Of a DNA stretch of 64,000 nt, positions 1-63,626 are shown in pieces (the first letter of the stretch is position 1; each line of letters begins with the position of its first letter). This stretch comes from Octopus vulgaris (lineage: Eukaryota): assembly GCA_951406725.2 (NCBI GenBank), contig OX597816.1:71424001-71488000 (forward strand). Reading direction: 5' to 3'. Under the pieces are notes generated by a model, which was given only the letters and a program-made list of their open reading frames with translations, had not been told where the DNA came from and made no database searches. The position numbers were made by a program, and so were the translations under genes.

Positions 1-2470
1 TTGACTGGCTTCTCTGCCGGTGGCACATAAAAAGCACCAACCGATCGTGGCCGTTGCCAGCCTCCCCTACACTCACGGAGTGGTTGGTTTTAGGAAGAGC
101 ATCCAGCTGTAGAAACACTGCCAGATCAGACTGGAGCCTGGTGCAACCTTCTGACTTCCCAGATTCCGGTTGAACCATCCAACCCATGCTAGCATAGAAA
201 ACGGATGTTAAACGATGATGATGATGATGATACTACAGCCAATCATTAATCATAAGTGAGTGAAATTTAGTAACATGAATTATCATCATCATCATCGTTT
301 AACATCCACTTTCCATGCTGCCATGGGCTGGACGGTTTGACTGAGGGCTGGCAAGCCAGAAGGCTGCACCGGACTCCAATCTGATCTGGCAAAGTTTCTA
401 CAGCTGGATGCCTTTCCTAATGCCAACCACTCTGAGAGTGTAGTGGGTGCTTTTTACATGCCACTGACATGAGGGCCAGCTAGGTGGTACTGGCATCGTT
501 TTTCTAATTCTTTTAGGGGTCTATGTAGTCACAAACAGAAATAGATACCTTCTTAGCTCCTTAACCTGCCCTTAATCCTGCAGCACATCAAGGATGTGGC
601 AGTTGGAGGGAGAGCGAGTGCATCAGTACATAGTTGGTACTCATTCACATCTGAGCATATTGTAGCAATATGAAGTGAAGTACCTTGCTCAATGATACAA
701 TCAATTGTCTAGTGCAAGAATTGAACTCATGACATTATGGATCATGAGTCAAATTCCCTATCTACTAAGCTATGTGCCTTAACCAGAGAATGATATTAAA
801 TATAAGCACCAACTTAATCTTTTAATTTTGAATGATTAATTCAGAAGTGGAAGCAAAGTGGCCAAAATTCTTTCCGGGGTTTCCAGTGTTGCTGGGAGTG
901 GGAAAGGAAGCCTGGTCTAAATATTTGCAACATCAGGAACACAGCTAAAGGCACCAAAGGATCAGGTAGGGATGTTAAACTAACATCCTGTGAACCCTTT
1001 GTGAATGATTTTTATCTAATGATGAATTAGATAATAGAATTCCAGTTAGGCATCCAATTTTTCTCAGAACTTTGTCACTCTAGAAGGCATCCAGCAGTAG
1101 AAACTATGCTGAAGCAGATACTGGAGTGTTATGTGATCCTTAGACCCATCGCGTCCTGTCAAACTGTTTAACTCGTGCCAGGACAGGACAAGAACACTAA
1201 ATGATGATGAAGTCATTTCTCCAGAGGTTTAACTCATTAACAATCAGAAGCACAATAAAATATGTAATCACTATTACTCTTACAAGTAGTAGTAGTAGTA
1301 GTAGTAGTAGGGGAAGTGGTGGTAGTAGTACTAGTTGTGGTGGTTTTCATTGCAATAGTCACTATACCATCATTGAGCATCGGTGCCAGAAACATTGAAC
1401 ATCGAAAACATCATCAAAAAGTTTACAGTAGTAGTAGTAGTAGCAGCAGCAGTAGTAGTAGTAGTTGTAGTAGTAGTAGTAAGTATAGACCTCTATCAGC
1501 ATCTTTTAGACAGCAGTTCACTTATTGGCAGTGAAGTTTACTGGTAACGTGTAGTTAGTCACGTGCACAAAGACCCAATTTTTGAGCACTCGTAAGGTGT
1601 AAAGTTGCATAGATGAATAAGAAAAAGAAGAAAAAAAAGGGGGGGAAAGAAAAGCAACCCCCACCACCCAAAGAAAGCGACAAGATACTGTTTTGTTACG
1701 GAAGTAGGTGACTAAATGGTGTAGTCTTTTTGACTGTAGCTATGTTAGTAGTGTCAAAGTTAAATTGGTTCATTTTACCTATTAAACAGAAATAGGAAGA
1801 AAAAACATAAAAATCAAAATCTTCCTTCTAACGTATTGATCTTTCAAACTGATATTGATTTTAACTGCCATAGATGACTCACATATCAAATTCAAAACAC
1901 AAAAATAAAACTGAAGCTGTAACTGTTTCTGAAAGCACATGAAATTATTCTTAGATAGAAACAAGAGCCGGCAGTCAACTGGGGGTAAATCTAGAGTTAA
2001 AGTTTTTGTGTATACAGATATAAACAAAACTAGGATTAATGGAACTAAGCAAAGATTCTGAAGATGATAGTTGAATGGAAGTGTTTGGTAAAGTGTTCTC
2101 ATTCTGCTATTGATGGTTGCTTCATGCTGTGACTGGTAATGGTAAATCTGCCAAATTAGGTAACCTAGCTGGAAATAGGAACTACTTGTTCAATAGCTGA
2201 GTGGTTGCAGTTAAAGAACAGAGAAATTCAAATGGGAAATACATCTTCCACTAATTCTATGCAAAAAAAAAAAAGCAGGAATTTTCAGAGAAAGTAGCTG
2301 ATATATGTATATATGTTTGTGTGTGTGTGTGTGTGCAGACATATATTTATATCAATTTCAAAACTGGAAATGTATGTTTACTAAATACATTTGTTTAAAG
2401 AATGTTTCTTTTAATGTTCAGAGAGTGATCTTCTGTGGATATGACTGCACAGCCATCAGACATACACACA

Positions 2471-2602: not shown

Positions 2603-3002
2603 TAGAGAGAGTAGATAGAGAGAGAAAGAGAGAGGGAGAGATAGCATGATCATTGCCAGCATTGCCTGACTGGCTCCTGTGCTGGTAGTACATAAAATAC
2701 ACCATTCCAGCGTGGTCGTTGCCAGGGCCACTGAACTGGCTCTTGTGCTGGTGGCACGTAAAACACCATTTGAGCATGGATGATGCCAGTACCGCTTGAC
2801 TGGCTCTCATGTCGGTGGCACATAAAAAGCACCCACTACACTCTCGGAGTGGTTGGCATTAGGAAGGGCATCCAGCTATAGAAACATTGCCAAATCAGAT
2901 TGGAGCCTGGTGCAGCCTTCTGGCTCACCAGCTCTCAGTCAAACTGTCCAACTCATGCCAGCATGGAAAGCAGATGCTAAACGATGATGATGATGATGAT
3001 GA

Positions 3003-3135
3003 TAGGCACAGGCTGTGTGATAAGCTTGCTGTCCAACCATATGGTTCCAGGTTTGGGCAAGTGTTCTCTACTATAGCCTTAGGCTGACCAAAGCCTTGTG
3101 AGTGGATTTTGTAGACATAAACTGAAAGAAACCAG

Positions 3136-4247: not shown

Positions 4248-4869
4248 TATATATATATGTATAGTGAGAATGAATTAGAAGTGGCTCTAATAATGGTAAT
4301 GTTACTGATGTTATATACTGAGGAAAAAATCCCTTTAAAACACTGGGTGTTAAAAAAACATATTGAATAGGGACTTTTCCTCTGACATACAGTTAATAAG
4401 TGTACAAACAGAAAATATACATTAAATATCATATGTGACTGTTATGACGTGCGTATACACATCTGGTGTAAAATGGTATTACACAAATAAATACTTGGTT
4501 GTGGCTATCTAAATATAACCTATCGCACAAATATATGTTAACACAGAATGCACTCTATACCATTCAAACATTGGTATGATACTCAGTATTCACTATAGAA
4601 CCTCTGAACTGTTAAACCAACACACATCATACTAACATGGTAAACCAATGCAGTTGAACTAACAGCCACCAACCACCCTCTGTTGACAGTTCACTCAGTT
4701 CTTTCGGATAGTCCACCTTTAGTCACAGGGGGGTGTTCAGGATTCCCCCATAACAGTGACACTGATAATGCTTATATTGTTAAAGCTGCTTCTAATTCAA
4801 AATTGAATTTTGTTTTACTTGTGTAGAGCTGTTGCACATCAGAAAATAAATTTTGTTCATGATTGAGAA

Positions 4870-5472
4870 GGCCTGGCAAGTAAAGTGAGATCACAGCCAT
4901 AGCCTATACCAGTGTTGTATAACCAGCTCATTTTAAAAGTACCCTTGAATCACCTGGCAATACGCTGCGCTTGAGAAGACCTATTGAGTCAAGTAGAATC
5001 AAAAGCAAATCAAGATCGAAATCAAAATGGAAATTGTAGTTGTGGCCGATGCCAGTGCCACTTCACTGGCACCCATGCCAGTGGCATGTAATAAGCACTG
5101 TTCAAGCGTGGGTCAATGCCAGTGCTACCTGATTGGCTTCCCATGCCAGTGGCATGTAAAAAGCACCATCCGAATGTGGTCGATGCCAGTCTCCCCACCA
5201 TCCCGACTGGCTTCCGTGCCGGTGGCACATAAAAAACACCATCTGAACATGATTGATGCCAGTGCCGCCTGATTGGATCCAGTGTCCTTGACACATAAAA
5301 AGCACCCACTACACTCTCAGAGTGGTTGGCGTTATGAAGGGCATCCAGCTGTAGAAACCTTGCCAGATCAGATTGGAGCCTGGAGCAGCCTACTGGCTTG
5401 CGAGTCCTCCAATCAAACTGTCCAACCCATGCCAGCATGGAAAACGGGCGTTAAACAATGATGATGATGATG
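4870..5472 (+). mobile_element. Retroposon family C ((GAT)n tail, internal ~60-65-bp module array)
   Basis: Constant 3' part ggttggcgttaggaagggcatccagctgtagaaac...ccaacccatgc...gttaaacgatgatgat; other plus copies at 1-230, 2645-3003, 54650-54950. Confidence 0.8.
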
Positions 5473-6586: not shown

Positions 6587-7702
6587 ACATATGGCTCATG
6601 ACCTAGTGGTTAGGCTGTTGCACTCTTAATCACTTGATTGTGGGTTCAATTCCCTGAATGGGCAGTGCATTGTGTTCTTGAGCAAAACACTTCATTTCCT
6701 GTTGATCCAGTACCCCCATTCGATCAGAGGGAATGTTGGCTCATTTGAAGGCTAAAACAATGCAAAAAGTGCATTGTGGCCAGCGATGTGTAACAACATC
6801 TGCTAGCTTGGTCAGTCATGTGATCACACATGCACATGACAAGTTTCTTTCAGTCACTCTACCAAATCCCATTCACAAGAACTTGGTTAACCTGAAGTTT
6901 ATAAAAGAAGGCTCTTACTCAAGATGCCATGAACCTGAAACCATGTGGGTGGAATGCAAACTTCTTAACCACACGGCCATATCATCATCATCATCGTTTA
7001 ACGTCTATTTTCCATGCTAGCACGGGTTGAACGATTCGACCGGGGTCTGGGAAGCCAGGAGGCTACACCAGGCTCCAGTCTGATCTGGCGGTGTTTCTAC
7101 AGCTGGATGCCCTTCCCAACGCCAACCACTCCGTGAGTGTAGTGGGTGCTTTTTACATGCCACCGGCACAGAAGCCAGTCAAGGCAGCACTGGCATCAGC
7201 CACGTTCAGATGGTGCTTTGTACGTGCTACCGGCACAGGTATCACAACTACGATTTCTATTTGATATTTATTTTGATGTTGATGAACTTGACTCAATAGG
7301 TTTTCCTCAAGCACAGCAGGTCATGTGCCACTGGCACAGAAGCCAGTCAAGGTGGCACTGGCACTGTTTGGATGGTTCTTTTTACATGCCACTGACACAG
7401 GTATCACAACTACAATTTCCATTTGATATTTATTTTGATGTTGATGTACTTGACTCAATAGGTCTCCTCAAGCACAGCAGGTCACCCTATATATACAGAC
7501 ATATAGAAACTGGGAAGTTAAATGGAACGTGTAAGACTTGTGGACATGTATTTGCATGTATTGTGTGTGTGGGAGTGCGTGCATTTATAGAGAGAGAGAG
7601 AGATAAATATACATATATTAATTTGTTCCAGATTAAAACTTTATTCTATTACAAAGACTCAAAATATTAACAGTATGGATGTAAGAATTTATGAAGTCTT
7701 GA

Positions 7703-9408: not shown

Positions 9409-12400
9409 TCAAAAAATACCTTAAGAATGAGAACCCAGATTTGAAATTTCCCCAAGAATCCTGATGAAGGCTGGAAGGTATATCAACCGAACAGTTGTGT
9501 TAACAACAATCAAGATGAGGACAAATATTTGTCAAATGTAAATAATGTAAATAAATTCATGGTTAATTCAAATAAATGTAGCATTACATTAATTTGATAG
9601 AGTAATCTATGTATTGAGGAGTTAATCAACTTCTAATAACAAATCCAGTGAAAAGAAAGCAACAGCACTTTCCATTCCATCAAAAGCTCAAACAGAACAA
9701 TAGCAGCAGCAACAGTGGAGGCACAATGGACCAATGGTTAGGGCAGCGAACTCGCGGTCGGACGATCGCGGTTTCGATTCCCAGACCGGGCGTTGCGTGT
9801 GTTTATTGAGCGAAAACACTCAAAACTCCAAGAGGCTCCGGCGGGGAGTGGTGGCGACCCCTGTTGTACTCTTTCACCCCAACTTTCTCTAACTCTTTCT
9901 TCCTGTTTCTTATCCCCGGTTTCCTACGCAACCGCTGAGCCTGGATGCGCATTCATCCATCCATCGATTCTCTTGGTGTCGGGGGTTGACCTGCTTTCTC
10001 TTCTGCGGGTCTTACGAATAGCAAAGGACCACGTTTTGAACTTTTCCCACTACAGAGGTGTGATCTTGCGAGCTCTGAGACGAACATCGCTTTGCTCAAC
10101 AGCAACAGCAGCAGTACAACAGATGTGAGAAATAAAATAAAGAGCACTTACCGAGCATTGCGGAGGTGTAACATATTTTTGACCAGGCACAACTCATCTC
10201 CTCCACTTTGATTTTGCAAGAAGCACTTCGACCGATTTACTTGGCAGATATCAAGGAAATTCGGCCGTAAACGCCCCGTCATTAATTTGATGACATCTGT
10301 GAATACCATCAGTGCCATGGCACCGAAGAGAAAGACGCCTAATGGAGAGAGAGAACATAGATTACAATTATTAGGGCAATACTCTAACAACAAAACTCAT
10401 GTAGTTAAGACATCTAAAAATCATTAACATCAACACCTGGTTGAGCCTGCTTTGATATTTTTCTTACAGTGTTATCCTTGGTAGTATAGTGGTAAGTATT
10501 CCCACCTGTCACACAGGAGACCGGGGTTCAATTCCCCGCCAGGGAGGCTTTTAGGTGCAGGAGTGGCTGTGTGGTAAGTAGCTTGCTTACCAACCACATG
10601 GTTCCGGGTTCATTCCCACTGTGTGGCACCTTGGGCAAGTGTCTTCTACTATAGCCTCAGGCCGACCAAAGCCTTGTGAGTGGATTTAGTAGGCGGAAAC
10701 TGAAAGAAGCCCATCGTATATATGTATATGTATATATATATGCGTGTGTGTGTGTTTGTCCCCCCCCCCCAACATCGCTTGACAACAAATGCTGGTGTGT
10801 TTACATCCCCGTAAATTAGCGGTTCGGCAAAAGAGATCGATAGAATAAGTACTAGGCTTACAAAGAATAAGTCCTGGGGTCGATTTGCTCAACTAAAGGT
10901 GGTGCTCTAGCATGGCCGCAGTCAAATGACTGAAACAAGTAAAAGAGTAGAGAGTAGTGTCTTTTGATTGCTAATTTCTTGTCTATAGTCTGTAGATGAT
11001 TGCAATGCTAGTCAACCTGTCAAGTTTCTTGGACTAAGATTTATAAAAGTGTAATTTGTTCCGCAAAATAGGAAGAAATCCCAAAACAGAAAATGCCTAC
11101 GAATACATAGTAATATATTGCATTGTTTTTTTTATTTCTTTTAAAAATTTTATATAACTGAACATCTACATCAGTTAAAGTCCATTTTTTATGCAGAGCT
11201 GCATCATGATCCAATGTCAGCTTTGGCATGGTTTCATCATCATCATCATCGTTTAACGTCTGCTTTCTATGCTAGCATGGGTTGGACGATTTTGACTGAG
11301 GGCTGGCGAACCAAATGGCTGCACCAGGCTCCAATCTTGATTTGGCAGAATTTCTACAGCTGGATGCCCTTCTTAATGCCAACCACTCTGAGAGTGTAGT
11401 GGGTGCTTTTTACGTGCCACCGACACGGGGGCCAGTCAAGCGGTACTGGCAACGACCTCACTCGAATCCTTTTATACATGCCACCAGCACAGGTGCCAGT
11501 AAGGCGACGTTGGTAACGATCATGCTCGAATGGTGCCCTTTTACGTGCCACTAGCATGGAAGCCAGTTGGCTGCTCTGGCAATGATCACGCTCGGATGGT
11601 GCTCTTGGCACCCTACTAGCACGGGCACAAGCGCCAGTAAGGCGACGCTGGTAACGATCATGCCCGAATGATGCCCTTTAAGTGCCACTGGCATGGAAGC
11701 TGGTTAGCCACTCTGTCCTTGATATCACATAATGGTTGTAAATAAATCTCACCATCATACCATCATAGAACTGATGCTGTTTGTTATCAGTCTTCCATGA
11801 AAAGTATGTCTGACTACAGAAAATATTGCCCTACTTGGAGACAGGTGATGGTTGTCAACAGGAAGGGCATCCAGCCATAGAATATCTGCCTCAACAAATT
11901 TCGTCCAACTCATGCAAGTTTGGAAAAGTGGATGTTACAACAATGTTGATGATGATAATGACAAGAATTAATGATTTAGTTATCTTTGTCACTGGGATAT
12001 TGTTTTAGCCTCTGAACTAACAGACATCTGTCCAATGGCATTCCAATCATGACCACTCCATATTTTTTTTTGTAAGCACAATGCATCTATAGGAATACAT
12101 TATTCAACTTGTTCTTCTTTTAAAAAAGTAGGGATGTTGTTTGAGAATGATTTGACTGCTATTTCTAGCAGTTGGAAAGACCACATAATGACTTCCTTGT
12201 GGGCTTTACTGAGAATTGCTGTTGCTTAGCCCTAAGTTAAACTCTATTGAGTATTCCATCAAAGGCATTCCAGCCATGGCCCTGCTATCTTTCATTCAAA
12301 CAAAGTCTATCTAGGATTATACTATCTAATGTACCAAATCCCATCATCATCATTCAACGTCCATTGTGCATACTGACATGGGTTGGATGGTTTGACCAGA

Positions 12401-14048
12401 GCTGGCAAGTCAGGAGGCTGCACCAAACTCCAGCCTGATCTGGCATGGTTTCTTTGGCTGGCTGCCTTTCTTAATACCAACCACTTTACAGAGTGTGCTG
12501 AATGGTTTTACATAGCATCACGTGGGTACTTATACATGGCACTACATAGGTGCTTTTATGTGGCACCACATGGGTATATAACTAATAAATCATGTTACCT
12601 ATATAGCCATCTACATATTACACTTGATGTATATATACTGTTGACAGGCAAGTTACTGTGGTTTTGGTCTGAGATAAAATCTGGTTATGGATGTGCTGTG
12701 TTTAAAAACACAATATATATTGGAGAGGGATGAAAAATCCTCCCATCAGCAGCTAACAAGAATACCAGATGTATTTCAGCCTCGTTAGGCCTTGTCAATA
12801 ATGTGTACTTGCAGTCAGCCACATGCCTAGGAGAGACTGATTGCCTCTGATTTGGGAAACAGTAAATAGCACATTTCCTGATGTTGCAAATAACTGCTGG
12901 GTTGAATAAATAATCTGGTGTACCTAATTGAGGTAGCGTTAAATAAACATACCCATCTGTGTATCATTTTTAACATATATACATTACAGACAGGCAAGTT
13001 GCTGTAGTTTTAATCTGAGATGAAATCTCTTATGGGTGTGCTGTTTTTAAGAACATAATAGATATTGGAAGGAAATGTAAAATCATTCTGGCAGAGTAGT
13101 GAGAATGCCAGATGCATTATGGGTGTTTGGGCCTTTGTCAATGATGTATACTCACAGCTAGCCATATGTTGGATGAGCTTTGTCATATCCAATATAGAAA
13201 AGTGTTTATATGACATCCACTGGTGTTGCTTCCATTAACATGAATATAATTAAGAATTTCAAAGAACTTAATACAATAACCGATTTTTTCCACCATTTAG
13301 ACAATGTTTAGAACATATCTGATAGAATATTTCTCACATAAAATTATGTTGGAAGGTTTTAATTTAAATACGAACACTTCAAAATGGAGTGAGGATGCTT
13401 TGCATTGTAGATTGAGTGGTAGTGTCTGGGAAGTTGTTATGAAAGGATTATGAAGATTTATGGTTTAGAGGTTAGGTTTTTCAGCTCATGATTATAAGGT
13501 CATAAGTTCAATTCTTGGCAGCATGTTGGGCCTCTTGAGCAAGACACTTTATTTCAGATTGCTCCAGTCCACTCACTGACAAAAATGAATTATACATGTA
13601 ATTCAGTGGAGCAGCCTTGTCACATTCTGTGTCATGTCGAATCACCTAGAGAATGATGTTAAGGGTACGCATGTCTGTGGAGTGCTCAGCCACTTGCATG
13701 TCAATTTCAAAAGCAGGCTGTTCCACTGATCAGATCAACTGAAACACTTGTCATCGTAACCGATGGGATGCCAGTTATGAAAGGATAAAGAGAGTTGGGT
13801 GTGGTTCAAGAGAGATTTTGCTGCCATTTTAAGGAGGTTAGATGATAACACAGAGATTTCCTTGTGGGTTTAACTACTAACGATAATGAGAGGAAGTGCC
13901 AAATTAATGATCTTCACTTAACAGCTGAAGAATAGAATGTATCCCGATGTAATCTGTGTGTGGATTAATTATAATTACTAAGACAATTAACACACACCCA
14001 TGTACATGGGTGACTCACTGATAATTATTAACAATTAGACCACACACA

Positions 14049-16443: not shown

Positions 16444-17173
16444 ATGTATATATCACCATCATCATCGTTTAACTTCTGCTTTCCATGCTAGCATGGGTTG
16501 GACGATTTGACTGGGGACTGGTGAGCCAGATGGCTGCATCAGGCTCCAATCTGGCAGAATTTCTACAGCTGGATGCCCTTCCTAATGCCAACCACTCCAA
16601 GAGTGTGGTGAGTGCTTTTACATGCCACCGGCATGAGGGCTAGTCAGGCGGTACTGGCAACGGCCATGCTTTTTACATGCCACCTGCACAGGAGCCAGTC
16701 CAGTGGCACTGGCAACAACCTCGCTCAACTGTTTTTTCATGTGCCAATGGCACAAATGCCAGTAAGGCGACACTAGTAATGATCATGCTCAAATGGTGCT
16801 TTTTACATACCACCGGCATGGAAGCCAGTTAGTCACTCTGGCAACGATCATGCTTGGATGGTGCTCTTAGCGCTCCACTAGCATGGATGCCAATCATCAA
16901 ATTTGATTTCAATTTCGATTTCACTTGCCTCAACAGGTCTTCGCAAGCAGAGTTTAGTGTCCAATGAAAGAAAGGTACATATAAGTAGGCTGGTTACATC
17001 CCTGGCATAGGCCACTATAAAGTGGTTGGCATTAGGAAGGGCATCCAACCATAGAAACCAATCCAACTCAGACTAGAATTTGGTGCAGCTCTCTGGCTTG
17101 CTAGCTTTGGTCAAATCATCCAACCCATGGCAGCATAGACAACAGACCTTAAAGGATAATGATGATAATGATG

Positions 17174-43458: not shown

Positions 43459-45259
43459 AGAAACTTGCAACAGGGGGAGCTAACAGTGGGAAAAATCTTC
43501 AGAGGAAGAACTCCCATCAAAGTGTTTCAGCTTGTTAGTTCTGGACACTCTAAATGAGCTGGGCTCACATAGATAGTGACGCCTAGATGTTTTCTTCTTG
43601 TCATTTGAATACCACCTTCACTGGGGATTGCGGTCCGAACCTTTGGGTGAATTTATTGCTTGGCTACACAGGGTACCACACGGGGTAACTCTGTTCTCTA
43701 TACAGTGCTTGGCATATTGCACCATCAGTTTACTCCAGGCTCTTAAATTGCCCACTGGAGGAAACTTGACTCTGGGACATATGGTTTGCATCTCATCAGA
43801 GGCATCATTTGCTTGGATCTCCATGGCACTGTGAATTTTGACCAGGCTCTGCTATTCCAATGTCTTAAAGCATATAATATGTAAAACAGAGAAAAGGTTA
43901 TGAGCTGGTAGCATTGTTAGTATGCTAGGCAAAATGCTTAGCAGCATTTCATCCATCTTTACATTCTGGGTTCAAATTCCGTCGAGGTCAATTTTGCTTT
44001 TCATTCTTTCAAGGCCGATAAAATAAGTATCAGTTGAACACTGGGGTTGATGTAAGGGACTAGCCCCTTTCCCAAAATTTCAGGCCGATTACAGGTAAAT
44101 TCACCACCATTGATTCACTGCAGAGAAAGTTCACTGCCATCAATTTACCATAAAGAAAGTTCACCATGAGGAAAGTTCATCGAGAAAATATATTCACAAT
44201 TAATAGTTAAAAACTATTTTATTGGAGTGGAGGCACATGGCCTAGTGGTTAGAGCAGCTGACTCGCAGTCGAGGGATCACGGGTTCGAATCTCAGACTGG
44301 ATGATGTGTGTGTTTATGAGCGAAATACCTATGCTCCATGCGGCTCTGGCAGAAGGTAATGGCAAATTTCAGCTGACTCTTTCGCCACAACTTTCTCTCA
44401 CTCTTTCCTCCTGCATCTTGCAGCTCACCTGTGACGGACCAGCGTCCCATCCAGGTGGGGAACCTATAAGCCAAGCAAACTGGGAAACCGGTCCTTATGA
44501 GTCAGGCGTGGCTCAAGAAGGAACAAACAACTGTTCCTCCTAAAGGGATGAAACAACAACATTTTATTGGGGCAAAAAAAAAAATGGTGAATTGAGGCAG
44601 TGAACTTTCCCTGCAGTGAATTGATGATGGTGGACTTAATGGACATATTTCAGACTTTGTGCCAAAATTTGAAACCAATATGCAAGCAGAGAAGTCCAAG
44701 TTTGCATTTAGAAACTAGAGTGACTTTTTCTAAGACACCTTTTGGAACAAAAAGTATGTCATCATCATCATCATCATCGTTTAACGTCCGCTTTTCATGC
44801 TTGCATGGGTTGGACGATTTTGACTGTGGGCTGGCGAACTAGATGGCTGCACCAGGCTCCAGTCTTGATTTGGCAGAGTTTCTACAGCTGGATGCCCTTC
44901 CTAACGCCAACCCCTCCGAGAATGTAGTGGGTGCTTTTTACGTGCCACCGGCACGGGGGCCAGTCGGGCGGTACTGGCAATGACCTCAAACACAGAGCAT
45001 CTCAAAATAAATACAATAACGAAAGGATTAATATGTATCATTTTCATTGTGTCATCAAATACAGTAATCTGTTTCTTAATTGTGCTTTAACTTTTTCTGT
45101 TACTTTCATAACCAGTTCCATCAATTTGATGTCTCTGTTATGGTATCTAACTAGTGCAAAGTCTGCCCTTAGAGCAATTACTAACGATACAACTACACCA
45201 GTCAATGGGTTTTACGACACCTCCTTGCACTATATGACTAACGATGTGAGGAGTGTATA

Positions 45260-45350
45260 ACTTACTTCAATATTTTCAGCATCTCAATGAACATCTCCCA
45301 TGGACCAGCTGCATTGCCTGCCTTTATATTCTTAATTGCACTTTCAAAAT
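45260..45350 (-). pseudogene. RTE-clade LINE reverse-transcriptase fragment
   Basis: ESAIKNIKAGNAAGPWEMFIEMLK resembles the AIxxxKxGKAxGPxxIxxEMLK motif preceding the RT domain. Confidence 0.5.
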
Positions 45351-45552
45351 GTACAGCTGTCAACTTCAATAGCTCATCTCTCTCTCTCCCTCTCGGGTCT
45401 ACTTACAACAGAGAGACTGTCTCTCTATCTCTCTGCATTCATCTCATTCACCAATCTCCCAGTATGTTATATAATGCTATACTATAATACAACAAAAGTG
45501 ACTATAATGATATATGTGTGTTTTAAGTGGCCTTCATAACTTTGCCAGGATG

Positions 45553-52850: not shown

Positions 52851-55800
52851 ATATTTAGTATTTTAAAGATCTCTTTTATACATAATGGTCTTTTAAATAG
52901 TATATATTATGAGTGTGAGTATGTGTGTATGTATAGATATATGTCTGTGTGTGTATAGAATTTTATAGAAACTGAAGAACTTCACAATCTGTTACTCAGA
53001 GTTACTCTTTATTTGATACTATGAGAACATTAGCAGAAAAATCCAGTGTGTATGTTCCCATTTCCAGCTGTTTCAACTGTGTGTGTGTGTGAGTCTGCAT
53101 GTGTGTGTTGTTTTCTTTTGTAGTGGATTATTAAAATGTATGTAAATTTAAAGTAGTAAAACCAAAAAAAAAAAAATTTAAATTAAAAAAATTTTGTTTT
53201 TCTGTTCCAAGAAATTTAAACATTATTTTAAATAAAATAACATTTATGGAGAATTTTTCCAATTCTTATTCAAAAATTGCCATTAACTAAGTCTTTTATT
53301 ACCTGGTCAATACTGGTTGAGCATTGGATAAATTGCTTTGCGATACTTTGTTCTGGCTTTTTACATACTGAGTTCAAATCCTATCAAAACCAACTTCACT
53401 TTTCATCTCTCTGGGGATGATGAAGTAATGTGTCAGTGAAACACTGGGGTTAATGGTATCATTTGACCAAGTCCCCACAAATTTCAGCCCTTGTGTCAGA
53501 AACTTGGGAGAGGAAGTTAATCAATACTATAAAATTTCTTTATAGTATCTCCTCTGGTTCTTTATATTCTGGGTTCGAATTTAGCCAAGGACAAATTTGC
53601 TTTACATCCTTCCACAGTTGATAAAAGCACCAGTCAAGTACTGGACTTGATGTAATTGTCTGACTCCCTTCTCTCAAAATTCTGATGCTTGTGCTTAAAT
53701 TGGACGCTATTACAAAAATGGTAAGTAAGCAGAACCATTAGCATTCTTTATGTCCTGACTTCAAATCATGTTGAGGTCAACATTGCATTTTATGTCTCTA
53801 GGGTCAATAAAATAAACTACCAGCCTAGTACTGGAGGCAAAGGTGTATGGCCTAATGGTTAGGTTGCTGTTCTCATGATTTCAGGATTGTGATTTCAATT
53901 CCTGGATCAGGTACTGCATTGTGTTCTTGAGCAAAACAGTTCATGCTCCACCTTTAGTCAAGCAAATCGACCCCAGGACTTATTCTTTGTAAGCCTAGTA
54001 CTTATTCTATCAGTCTCTTTTGCCGAACCACTAAGATACGGGGACGTAAACACACCAGCGATGTTGGGGGGGAGACAAACACAGACACACAAACACACAC
54101 ATACAGTTTCTGTTTACCAAATCCACTCACAAGGCTTTGGTCGGACCGAGGCTATAGTAGAAGACACGTGTCCAAGGTGCCACGCAGTGGGACTGAACCC
54201 GGAACCATGTGGTTGGTAAGCAAGCTACTTACCACACAGCCATTCCTACATTAAAATACAGTAAATAATAATTTGTATTATTTACTTCTATCAGTTTGTA
54301 TTTCTGAGTTCCCTTCCAGGGCTCATGAAACAAAGAACCAGTCAATTAGACAAATGCAACCATGATTTGCAATCATGTGGCTGTGCTTGAATGTCCACTG
54401 TAATTGTGTCAATGGTAAAAATCATTATAATGATTGTTGTTATTGTTGTAGTAGTTTAGTCCAAGATCAATGTAGACTGAGCAGACCTATGATCAAAGGC
54501 TTTCCAGCCATGACTGCCATGCCTTTTTTCTATGCAGAATCCAAGATCATATTATAAAAATATGCTTTTCAAGATGCAAGGGTGTATGAAGTAAAGGAGA
54601 TTTAGTCATAAATGCTCCCTCATTAACTTGAAATTATAATTGTAATCACATGCTGGTGGCATGTGAAACATTCAAGCGAGGTCATCGCCAGTGCCGCTGG
54701 ACTGACTCCTGTGCAGGTGGCACGTAAAAAGCACCATTTGGGCATGGCCTTTGCCAGTACCACCAAACTGGCCTTCGTGCCGGTGGCACGTAAAAGCACC
54801 CACTACACTCTTGGAGTGGTTGGCGTTAGGAAGGGCATCCAGCTGTAGAAACTCTGCCAGATCAAATTGGAGTCTGGTTCGTCAGACCTCAGTCAAATCG
54901 CCCAACCCATGCTAGCATGGAAAGCGGATGTTAAATGATGATGATGATTAAGGTTTGCAAATGGCAGAATCACTAGAGTCCAATAGAAGTCACTTTAGTT
55001 TCGAGCATGTAGATACATACTCTTACATTCTGAGTTCAAATCTTGCCAAAGTCAACTTTACCTTTTTACCCAATCTGGATTTTTGAAAGAAAGTACTAGT
55101 TATTTACTGTTGGTACAGGCATGTAACCTGGTGGTTAGGGTGTTGCACTCTTTGTCATAAGAGCATGGTTTCAATTCCTGAACTGGGTGGTATGTTGCAT
55201 TCTTGAGCAAAGCACTCCATATTATGTTGCTCCACTTCTCCATAAATGAGACTGAGCCATAATGGCTTGGAAGTTAACCCTGTGATGGACCAGCATCTCA
55301 TTCAGTCAGGGAGCATTGTAATCTTAGTCCCTTAAATGACATGGAAACTGGATTAAGGTCCAGCCTTCTAAGTATAAGGGGTCAAGACAGTCTCTAACCT
55401 ATGTACTATGGGTGATGAATACTACGTAATTGTAATACCATACATGTGACAATGTTAGAGATCCTTAATATCATAACTTAATATATTATAATTAGATATT
55501 TAACCCTAGGTTAGCTGTGATGGTCCAGTCATGGCCATCTTGTCTTTTTCTAAAGATTGTAAGCTGTGTGATTTGAGGAGATTTGATTGCTATTTCTAGC
55601 AAAGTGAGTGGTTACATATAAGCTCCTGCTTTGGCTCATACATATTAGGTATTGTTACTACCCAGTAGTTTTTGTTTTAACTTTTATCTTTTACTTGTTT
55701 CAATCATTGGACTGTGGCCATGCTGAGGCACCACCACAAAGGGCTTAGTTGAACAAATCACCCTCAATACTTACTCTTTCAGTTTCCTTTGCCAAAATGC

Positions 55801-57570: not shown

Positions 57571-60500
57571 GCAGAGGAAAATATATATAAATATATATAT
57601 CAGGAATATGGTAGGAAATTCCTAGTAGATGATGTCAACAAAGAGACTATATTTAGGAGAATGTCAGCTGTCTTGATGCAGAAGTGGTGTGTTATAAAAA
57701 CTGAGTTGACCATCAATCCAGTCACTTCCCAAGTATTTGTCATTTTCATATACACCACGAAATTCTGGTTTACCAAAACAACCACTGGTATCTGGTTTAC
57801 CAAACCAATGACCATCATTTCGACTCATGCCATGGCATTATATATTACAACTCGATGCAACCCCCAAAAACTGGTTCACTGATCAACATCATTAGACTGT
57901 GGCTGGCATAATGAAATCGGAGTTTTATTTGCTTATTTCAAAACATTTCCGGCAAACAAATTTAAAAGATATATATATCATCATCATTGTTTAACGTCCG
58001 TTTTCCATGCTAGAATGGGTTGGACAGTTCGACCGGGGTCTGGGAAGCCAGGTGGCTGCACCAGGCTCCAGTCTGATCTGGCAGTGTTTCTACAGCTGGA
58101 TGCCCTTCCTAATGCCAACCACTCTGTGACTGTAGTGGGTGCTTTTTACGTGCCACCGACACAGGTGCCAGGGTAGCATGGCAACGGCCACGATTGGTTG
58201 GTGCTTTTTACGTACTACTGGCACGGAAGCCAGTCAAGGTGGCGCTGGCATTGGCCACGTATGGATGGTGATTTTTAGGTGCCACTGGCACAGGTGTCAG
58301 GGTAGGCTGGCAACTGCCACGAATGGTTGGTGCTTTTTACGTGCAAATGTACATGGTCAAAATACAAATATGTCAAATTCTCCATAGCTTGAAATATTAC
58401 GAACTGCCTAAATTGATTTCTGTCTTCTTGTTGGGGGTTGGAAATTATTAAGGTGTTTACATCACTTGACCAATCCCAGAGAAATAAGTCACCAATCCAT
58501 TTATGTACACATCAAATCTAATGCCTCCAGGGGATTGCAGCTACGAACTTACATACTATAAGGGTTTAGCACATTGCTTAATAATCAGAGACCTGTCAAC
58601 ACACATTGCATACATACATACATACATACACTACATACACATATACGTACACTACACACACACATGCATTACATATATCATCATCATCATCATCATAATC
58701 ATCATCATCATCGTTTAACGTCCGTTTTCCATGCTAGCATGAGTTGGACGGTTTGACCAGGGTCTGGGAAGCCAGGCTTCAATCTGATCTAGCAGTGTTT
58801 CTATGGCTGGATGCCCTTCCTAACACCAACCACTCTGTGAGTGTAGTGGGTGCTTTTTACATGCCACCGGCACAGGGGCTGGAGGAGGCTGGCAAACGGC
58901 CACAATTGGTTGGTGTTTTTTATGTGTCACCGACACAGACGCCAGTCAGACGGTGCTGGCATCAGCAACGTTCGGATGGTGCTTTTAACGTGCCACCGGT
59001 ACGGGTATCATAACTACTATTTCCATTTGATTTTTATTTTGATGTTGGTGTTTACGTACTTGACTCAATAGGTCTCCTCAAGCACAATGGGTCACTCTAC
59101 GATCCAAGGTTAGCACAGCAGGCCATCCTGCGAGCCATGAACTCACTTCATTTGTCGGGTATATATGTTTGTATATAAACCCAAATGACAAGAGTCTTCT
59201 GTTTTGCGGTACTTGTTCTATCTCTCTGCATTCTGATTTCGAATATTGCCAAGGTAAACTTAGTCTTCCATCCTTTATTTTATCTGGTGGGTGTTGGTAG
59301 GGGATAGGTCACAAACCCCCCCCACCCCCCAAAAAACCAGTTGGCAAGGACATGATGCTTCATGGTTCTTTGTTTTCTGACAGCAATTCCTGCAATGACA
59401 CTGATGCCAAGCCGCATCAGCTTTTCAGGAAAGTGTTTGTCTTGGATAATTCTGGTGGTACAGAGAAGAGAAACTTACATGCATGGTCAAACGCTAATCT
59501 TTTATAAAAAGTGTTGCTCAGGTTACATTCATCTTTTTTGGCTGTGTGTCAGTCTGTCTATCTAATTACTTTTTCCTTGTTGTGCATTGTGAGGCAGGAC
59601 CATCATGAGCTACAAGGCACTGTAGGACTCTTTTTATCCAAGCTTACATAGTAAAGCAGAAGCTGTTTGTCACACACACACATGTGCATACAAATACTCA
59701 TATACACACAAACTTGCATACACACACACACAGAGGAACAGGGAAAATGGGTCAAGCCTAAGTATACATACAATGACAAAACTCAGTAGATCCAGTTTAA
59801 GTATGGAGTGATAGACTTGTAGTAATGAGAGGAGGTCCTTGATAAGGTGGTATATAACAACAAGAAAAAAAAACCTCAAGACAATTCAAATGATTAGCTA
59901 ATTGATTAAATTAGTCAACTAGTTGACCAATAATTGCTTCTAATTTATGTACAAGGCCAGCAGTTTTGAAGAGGTCATATGATGAAAACAACTCTGGTAA
60001 TTGATGACTACTAGATTTCATTGACTCTGGAGAGATGAAAAGCAAAGCTGACCCTGACATGATTTGAACTCAGTATGTAAAGAGTTGAACCAAATGCTCC
60101 AAAGCAGTTTTTTCTTATGTTATAATGCTTCTGCCATTCCATTACCCTAACTTGTTGACTACTAATTATGGATTCAAATTTTGACACAAAGACCAGCAAT
60201 TCTAGAAGAGGGACATAATCACTTACATTGTCCTCAGTAGTGCTCAAATGGTACTTATTAACCATGAAAAGATAAAAGACAAGATTGACCCTGGAGGAAT
60301 TTGAATTCAGAAAGTTGAAAATCAGAGGAATTACTAAGAATTTTATATAATACACCAACAATTCTTCTAACTTAACACCTTTACACCAAGGGCAACAATG
60401 ATAATAAACCAAGGCATTACATTTTTTGGGGAGGGGACATGTTGATTATATCAACCCCAGTGTTTCACTGGTAATTTAAAGACCCCAAAAGGCTGAAAGG

Positions 60501-63090: not shown

Positions 63091-63626
63091 TATCACGTAA
63101 AGCTAATCGGTCACAGAATGTGTGTCATTAGACAGCTGGAGGAGATGTCTTCTTGGGGCTATAAACATCAGTAGCACTGTCCTGTATAGGACACCACAAT
63201 TAGTTGGCAAATATATGTTACACCATATATATATATATATATATCATCATCATCATCATCATCGTTTAATGTCCGTTTTCCGCGCTAGCACGGGTTGGAC
63301 GGTTTCGACCGGGGTCTGGGGAGCTAGGGACTGCCCCAGGCTCCAGTCTAGTCTGGCAGTGTTTCTACAGCTGGATGCCCTTCCTAACGCCAACCACTCC
63401 GCGAGTGTAGTGGGTGTTTTTTACGTGCCACCTGCACAGGTGCCAGAGGGGTCTGGCATCGGCCACGTTCGGATGGTGCTTTTTATGTGGGGGGGGGGGG
63501 GGTGCAGAAATATATAGGGGAGCACCAGTGGGGAGGGGTGGTTCAGAGAAATGATGACAGGTTCTAGGCAAGTAGAATGTAGGATATCAAGAGAGGGGTA
63601 ATGCATGGTGAAATAGCGTATTGAAG

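Follow-up and report, generated by a model that had tools for sequence, protein, structure and literature searches.

We inspected the family of retroposon copies that is dispersed over the window, i.e. the complete stretch of 64,000 nucleotides that was analysed (64 kb). The copies carry tandem modules ahead of a constant part. Every complete module core is predicted to consist of a five-base-pair stem S1, a single-nucleotide loop L1, a four-base-pair stem S2 and an A-rich loop 3, and can be preceded by a hairpin. The features of the copy at 54649-54948 and the positions of the other copies are collected in Table 1.

Table 1. Features of the copy at 54649-54948 (first ten lines) and other copies in the window.
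Feature	Position	Strand	Remarks
Module 3, 5'-truncated	54649..54672	+	S1 intact via matched CpG changes; L1 = T
Module 3, S2 partner	54649..54672	+	degenerate, with a 5-nt loop and G-U at two pairs; matched by the model over positions 1-20 only
Module 2, hairpin	54687..54706	+	arms 54687-54691/54702-54706, one mismatch, 10-nt loop
Module 2, pseudoknot core	54710..54735	+	S1 54710-14/54720-24, L1 = A 54715
Module 2, S2 of core	54716-19/54732-35	+	7-nt A-rich loop
Module 1, hairpin	54753..54772	+	arms 54753-57/54768-72, 10-nt loop
Terminal pseudoknot core	54776..54800	+	S1 54776-80/54786-90, L1 = C 54781, S2 54782-85/54797-800, 6-nt loop
Constant part 1	54801..54860	+	short spacer and conserved LINE 5'-UTR domain from 54818
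Constant part 2	54894..54948	+	3' tail stem-loop and GAT repeat, common to non-autonomous elements in metagenome loci
Terminal core and single outside knot	54776..54800	+	positional homologue of the single knot in L009, L083 and the L004 family
Family copy	1..225	+	clipped at window edge, terminal pseudoknot deleted
Family copy	282..495	-	1 module, 5'-truncated
Family copy	2650..3003	+	3 modules, 5'-truncated
Family copy	4858..5471	+	head region and 4 modules
Family copy	6981..7489	-	head and 2 modules; head and first module duplicated (162 nt)
Family copy	11236..11700	-	4 cores and one divergent module
Sister-family copy	12342..12574	-	three decayed ~24-nt pseudoknot-only repeats without hairpin; register shifted: S1 4 bp, S2 5 bp
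Family copy	16457..17012	-	head, 4 cores and one divergent module
Family copy	44761..44990	-	1 near-consensus module; reference for mapping sequencing reads
Family copy	57977..58353	-	3 cores and truncated fourth
Family copy	58677..59170	-	head and 3 modules
Family copy	63243..63490	-	1 core and truncated second

The 26-nt module pattern described in the earlier note was matched 15 times in the window at ≤ 3 mismatches (versus 0 times in 100 shuffles), and a looser search recovered 31 cores across 12 family copies (1 to 4 cores per copy), with two copies reaching 5 modules once the more divergent modules were counted by eye. A descriptor of the pseudoknot gave 17 hits in the window, of which 16 were located inside modules, and 30 shuffles yielded 0-3 hits. 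The variable tandem array ahead of a constant part that had been proposed is thus borne out. The proposed range of 1 to about 5 modules holds, but a terminal module is not present in every copy: it was deleted in the copy that ends at 225 and is absent from the copy that ends at 17166. Likewise, the tandem units are real but neighbouring cores are 55-73 nt apart, instead of the 60-65 nt that had been given as the module size. The module at 54649-54672 is 5'-truncated with a degenerate S2, and a recognisable S2 3' strand is missing in 4 of the 31 cores (2 or 3 of these represent one recurring module type); all nine pairs are intact in 14. The two cores that had been given as examples are both present, but loop 3 of 54776-54800 has 6 nt rather than 7 and the first letter of 54710-54735 is T, not C.

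A hairpin with 5-bp arms and a loop of 6-17 nt was found ahead of 21 of the 31 cores by a search that demanded near-intact arms; the other 10 cores were, read by eye, first modules after the head (3), truncated (3) or decayed (4). The GCCAG(T)...(A)CTGGC stem between the knots is therefore confirmed for these 21, but its loops are not all different, as had been thought: they group into types common to several copies, and the arm 54702-54706 has one mismatch. This inter-core hairpin is backed by conservation, with no covariation seen. The L1 base is indeed variable at the three positions that had been cited (54781, 54715 and 54654, with C, A and T, respectively), but a C at L1 forms a CpG with the first S2 base, so that part of the variation of these two bases, including the T at L1, can be decay. 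In the constant part, changes were found at 15 of 48 CpG positions (31%) versus 20 of 576 other positions. The family copies are old, and candidates for target-site duplications, present in 6 of 12 copies, are only short or of low complexity.

The copies that reach the head carry 2, 3, 4 and 5 modules and therefore reflect true variation in number, and most other copies are 5'-truncated. The earlier note, which spoke of a retroposon family, had missed this partial contribution of 5'-truncation to the number variation as well as the LINE 5'-UTR origin described below. Because module types recur at equal rank in different copies (e.g. 54711 and 16689), the arrays appear to be inherited from source elements. 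The junctions show short deletions, the head was duplicated in one case and joints within sequencing reads have periods of 26-55 nt, all of which would fit template slips between repeats.

By its sequence, the element that carries the array is a non-coding, non-autonomous bipartite retroposon with a 5'-UTR domain common to single-ORF endonuclease/RT LINEs. When 23 nt of the constant part were used as query, 95 metagenome loci matched, and in three loci (L009, L033 and L077) the shared domain is situated directly ahead of an ORF that encodes a LINE endonuclease domain. The knot and the domain can be aligned between the window copies and L009, and longer relatives of L009, located on 3-4 kb contigs, encode single EN+RT proteins of mostly ~1000-1100 aa. 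As the layout with a single EN+RT ORF fits RTE, the partner LINE likely belongs to the RTE clade. Four pieces of LINE proteins, compared with the window by tblastn, gave zero matches at E ≤ 0.01. Only ~130 nt separate the start of the domain from the end of the tail. ORF-less elements at other loci have the tail stem-loop and GAT repeat in common with the window copies, and the autonomous loci that were retrieved stop before the 3' end. The domain stem is fully paired in 69 of 77 distinct contexts, and S1, domain stem and tail stem each present a helix end that is followed by an A-run. Up to the present 5' limit of the head, a tRNA-headed SINE is not supported, since ARAGORN finds no tRNA and the sole Rfam tRNA (10475) lies outside the family. 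The element family is abundant in sequencing runs under five organism labels, with > 110,000 matching contigs in each of two DNA-type runs. The RNA reads are distributed equally over both strands, with no start site seen, and for that reason do not establish independent transcription.

The 26-column motif of the core is also present outside the window, once each in L009 (an autonomous-type LINE), in L083 and in the L004 family (both non-autonomous); two of these three families cluster together. The S2 start precedes the domain by 35-39 nt in these families and by 36-37 nt in the window copies. We take the array unit to be an amplified piece of a LINE 5' UTR. Of 100 loci searched with a model made from nine sequences, 12 were recovered at E < 0.05 (4 of which had served to build the model), and because each of the 12 is single-copy, tandem arrays are seen only in this family and in the sister copy. 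When the upstream regions of the metagenome loci were clustered, this knot was present in only 2 of the 33 clusters. Other lineages have H-type candidates of a different kind, likewise with A-rich loops (L014, L033, L098 and L126), or a twister-P1-like motif in the slot before the domain (L045 and L193; E 4.4e-7 and 0.002, both below gathering score), and the knot is accordingly not universal, a point against the docking reading given below. The module pattern gave 0 matches in metagenome and viral contigs, and the scan of prokaryote genomes with 18 letters of the domain gave 105 loci, near the 69 expected by chance. LINE-like context was observed at 19 of 113 domain matches in prokaryote genomes and viral loci; these probably stem from eukaryote contamination. 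This knot was found at none of 15 loci examined, and the L009 protein had no match among viral sequences.

Taken together, the module motif is probably a selected RNA pseudoknot fold. In an alignment of nine rows (five from the window and four from outside) 96.3% of the cells pair. The H-type reading of the earlier note is supported, more strongly than the note itself could show, by S1, with two-sided changes at pairs 3 and 5 in the comparison with the three other families, and for S2 only by G-U changes: S2 is 100% paired in the nine rows, with changes to G-U at two pairs, no two-sided change in its four core pairs and an invariant 5' strand. Column 11 is paired throughout: with column 5 in the window family, with column 22 (C-G) in the sister copy and, in the outside families, with one or the other (T-A), which provides a possible fifth S2 pair (T-A outside, C-G in the sister), the C-G form being that of one sister copy. 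The covariation score was reached by 0 of 500 shuffles and slid controls remained ≤ 0.24 versus 0.37, although these controls are lenient because the structure came from the same sequences and the rows are related. In the window copies there is an excess of two-sided CpG changes in S1 (6/9 versus 5/22, p = 0.04), also relative to shuffles, which could come from correction of the DNA palindrome or from copy age; as S1 is a DNA quasi-palindrome with such an excess, mutational correction may add to its covariation.

Sequencing reads of four runs, mapped on the near-consensus module, show L1 transversions at 11-32%, with L1 taking all four bases, and the remaining variants sit in loop 3, spacer and hairpin loop. 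Non-CpG variants of ≥ 3% were observed at 8-10 of 19 unpaired versus 0-1 of 25 paired sites (Fisher p ~4e-4, with sites that were classified by hand and are not independent). The sole exception in a stem is G11-to-A, at 14% in RNA run X24 versus 1.1% in the DNA run under the same species label, and it may come from one abundant transcript. The variant table has biases, as C5-to-T, which is present in 7 of the 31 window cores, is absent from it. ViennaRNA, limited to nested structures, returns a hairpin, and its z-scores, between -1.66 and +1.20, are unremarkable and uninformative on a pseudoknot. With L1 free to vary, the sixth pair of that hairpin is lost, which counts against a plain 6-bp hairpin.

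Rfam gave no match at gathering for the modules, with only one snoRNA hit at E = 0.93, and none at E ≤ 0.1 for L009, L083 and L004. A twister origin of the module, suggested by a shared 7-nt stretch, was rejected because the outside homologues do not have the stretch and no twister match was obtained from Rfam at E up to 5. By eye, no convincing hammerhead or HDV-like cores were found in the head, and Rfam agrees.

The earlier note had compared the knot with those of luteoviruses. Like the luteoviral/poleroviral knots of BWYV and PLRV, it is an H-type fold of ~26 nt, with short stems, a very short L1 and an A-rich loop across S1, as far as described in the available part of PMC5416846. The same source lists the slippery heptamer as one of the two motifs that are required for a frameshift signal. 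The likeness in topology stands but a frameshift role does not: none of the 31 cores and none of the 3 outside homologues has a slippery heptamer upstream, and the element is non-coding. In luteoviral knots a conserved L1 cytosine forms a base triple. Here the L1 cytosine is not conserved (C, A, T or G in the reads and T in all outside families). Unlike the luteoviral knots, the knot in the window thus has no slippery heptamer or ORF, has a free L1 and occurs in tandem in a retroposon.

Variable-number tandem units that are inherited by subfamily are known from other retroelements, i.e. the 5' monomer arrays of rodent L1 and the VNTR of SVA. Those are promoter or GC-rich repeats, whereas the unit in the window is short and appears constrained as an RNA fold. 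The nearest relatives in organisation are the bipartite non-autonomous RTE derivatives and RTE-mobilised SINEs (RTESINE, WALLSI3, RTE-N and AviRTE SINEs), which, in the accessible parts of PMC5786205 and PMC4844689, likewise combine a LINE 5'-UTR piece with a microsatellite tail, lack an ORF, have high copy number and include 5'-truncated copies. Unlike these, the window family has a variable-number tandem array of a structured 5'-UTR unit, and no tRNA head was found. The supplement text of PMC5786205 does not contain the domain letters (its figures are not searchable), and no pseudoknot is proposed in the accessible main text. A knot whose fold is kept despite sequence change is also found in the pseudoknot-hinge-stem of the avian/turtle R2 3' UTR (PMC12180492, as far as accessible); it differs in that it belongs to another clade, is located in the 3' UTR by the template start, is single and was established by structure and mutants, where the window knot was recognised by sequence. 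Finally, twister-P1 ribozymes are found at RTE 5' ends (RF03160; PMC8501958, in the part available), corresponding to the pre-domain slot of L045 and L193, and the modules themselves have no twister match.

These observations lead us to a tentative reading, which we put a little below an even chance: a LINE-derived non-coding retroposon carries a multiplied knot that would serve as docking site for the helper LINE protein. According to this scheme i) the single knot of a LINE 5' UTR would have been multiplied in tandem in a non-coding retroposon; ii) selection on the sense RNA would, as we strongly infer, preserve the stems in the source elements, with loops and linkers drifting; iii) modules would duplicate and be deleted via template slips, pass on by subfamily and be trimmed by 5' truncation at insertion; and iv) in the least certain step, several knots might raise the odds that the helper protein is captured or retained in competition with the RNA of the LINE itself. 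That the knot serves solely for translation of an own ORF is unlikely, as the ORF-less L083 and L004 family keep it. Docking to the helper is favoured by the helix-then-A-run that is common to S1, domain and tail, and by the R2 precedent, where the avian protein binds the 3'-UTR pseudoknot and compensatory mutants rescue insertion (accessible part of PMC12180492). The more specific idea that the 5'-UTR knot of an RTE-type LINE captures its own protein, and that the multivalent array of the parasite (and that of its sister) outcompetes the helper, we regard as possible but on the whole doubtful.

The array could also be a neutral by-product of an RT that pauses at the structure and slips, with only the single knot being functional. 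This is unlikely, yet it survives best among the alternatives, as even the head-reaching copies have 2-5 modules, slippage is visible as short deletions, the head duplication and repeat units of 26-55 nt in the read joints, a module type without S2 recurs in several copies, and one knot suffices in all outside families. Against it, the loops (6-17 nt) and linkers diverge between module types and the stems are constant, and the pooled reads of three DNA-type runs contain no common non-CpG stem variant; unchanged stems despite divergent loops, and reads without stem variants, suggest constraint after duplication, a result that is favoured by the way in which the hairpins were searched.

Recruitment of ribosomes by knot and domain, for translation start in the LINE and with the non-coding element awaiting a new helper protein there, we judge rather improbable. 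In L009 the first candidate ATGs in frame do follow closely on knot and domain, folds that interact with ribosomes include small pseudoknots, and cleaved twister leaders aid translation in an RTE element (PMC8501958, in the part available), but there is no slippery site and most domain-bearing lineages are without this knot. Hardly different in probability, and if anything a shade lower, is protection by a stack of knots of an uncapped or passively transcribed RNA from 5'-to-3' decay. The twister-P1-like motif occupies the same pre-domain slot in L045 and L193, and ribozyme folds were proposed as guards of R2 template 5' ends (PMC11331408, accessible part). However, the pseudoknots of BWYV, MMTV, IBV and SRV-1 fail to stall Xrn1 in vitro in the accessible part of PMC10321173, and read ends do not pile up at the modules, for which the libraries are a weak test. 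Of the "modular RNA device" that the earlier note had suggested, the nuclease block is thus weakened, given the failure of the BWYV knot to stall Xrn1 (same part of PMC10321173), and protein docking would be the favoured form. That the modules are DNA promoter or factor-binding monomers with incidental palindromic pairing is very improbable: S1 is a DNA inverted repeat and an element without tRNA head needs another promoter, but the S1 letters differ between families with pairing kept, L1 is free, the S2 complementarity is more than a simple palindrome and the one-sided changes are sense-strand C-to-T that G-U pairs tolerate, a pattern that therefore favours a role of the RNA over one of the DNA.

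In the full-text literature that was searched, no description of the knot or array was found; the same holds for the searched parts of the octopus repeat papers PMC13282606, PMC9115989, PMC8967140, PMC4758252 and PMC13295347. The window family may already have a name. The kind of element is known, and what is new is an apparently undescribed pseudoknot with cross-family support that was amplified in tandem. For the retention of part of the LINE 5' UTR by RTE-mobilised elements, the accessible text of PMC5786205 offers no settled reason and speculates on transcription-factor binding; our results indicate an RNA fold with cross-family support in the retained piece instead. As nature provides a dose series of 1-5 copies, the question of what the knot does is directly testable. 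Trans-acting templates for gene insertion already make use of RTE-1 UTRs, which have been optimised there (PMC13708176, in the part available), and a defined 5' element would have practical use in such templates. If capture of the helper protein by the knot is true, it would explain the retention of the 5' UTR, and RTE-based gene writers would gain a portable module.

The stem of the LINE 5'-UTR segment that forms part of the constant portion of the family (the domain) retained its four variable pairs in 69 of the 77 distinct contexts; an additional short pseudoknot pairing is possible within the domain and is poorly conserved. Upstream of the domain, in the same UTR region, further H-type pseudoknot candidates with A-rich loops were found at four outside loci that carry domain letters (L014, L033, L098 and L126), and the S2 stems of those in L014 and L033 both measure 7 bp and differ in their letters. 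The locations of this stem and of the other features are listed in the table.

Location of structural features and related copies (coordinates refer to the window unless a locus is given)
Feature	Location	Strand	Remark
Stem within shared 5'-UTR domain, then A-run	54818-54860; loci L001-L095		four variable pairs
Twister-P1-like motif adjoining domain	L045:1518-1595	-	below gathering score
Twister-P1-like motif adjoining domain	L193:243-302	+	below gathering score
Sister-family copy	12342-12574	-	three pseudoknot repeats of ~24 nt, without hairpin; one copy in window
Copy of family or related	11849-11900		nested in head-to-head orientation with family copy
Copy of family or related	17021-17166		nested in head-to-head orientation with family copy
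Close-set inverted pair of family copies	285-495 beside 1-225

Within the tandem modules, the hairpin loop of some module types is complementary to the S2/S1 strand of its own knot (54691-54699 with 54714-54723) and therefore provides a competing fold; this complementarity may be left over from a fold-back duplication, or it may act as a switch. For the terminal module, a second possible S2 partner lies 4 bases downstream (region 54792-54805), so that a register with a longer loop is possible there. In the head, 5' of the module array, a hairpin (e.g. 4965-4990 (+) and 16925-16950 (-)) displays one two-sided change between subfamilies, as read by eye. The pseudoknot register of the sister-family copy is shifted (S1 4 bp, S2 5 bp), and loose ends in sequencing-run matches suggest that this sister family is common.

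Several family or related copies are arranged as closely spaced inverted pairs, which could form double-stranded RNA within host transcripts. Just upstream of the family copy at 44761-44990 (-), two weak, collinear tblastn pieces at 45089-45363 (-), with E values of 3.7 and 5.0 against an RT region, possibly mark a decayed LINE fragment. A tRNA-like sequence at 10475-10546 (+) matched Rfam with 43.6 bits, whereas ARAGORN called no tRNA there.

Animal-like retroposon sequence was also recovered from prokaryote genome records (L098, L099, L116, L125, L126, L130, L134, L135, L168, L176, L181, L189, L190, L193 and L196), where it probably represents contamination. In the EbuSINE2 sequence given in the supplement of PMC5786205, the Deu domain holds a stem end and an A-run, like the tail and knot motif of the octopus family, and this likeness offers a lead toward a broader motif across SINE bodies.
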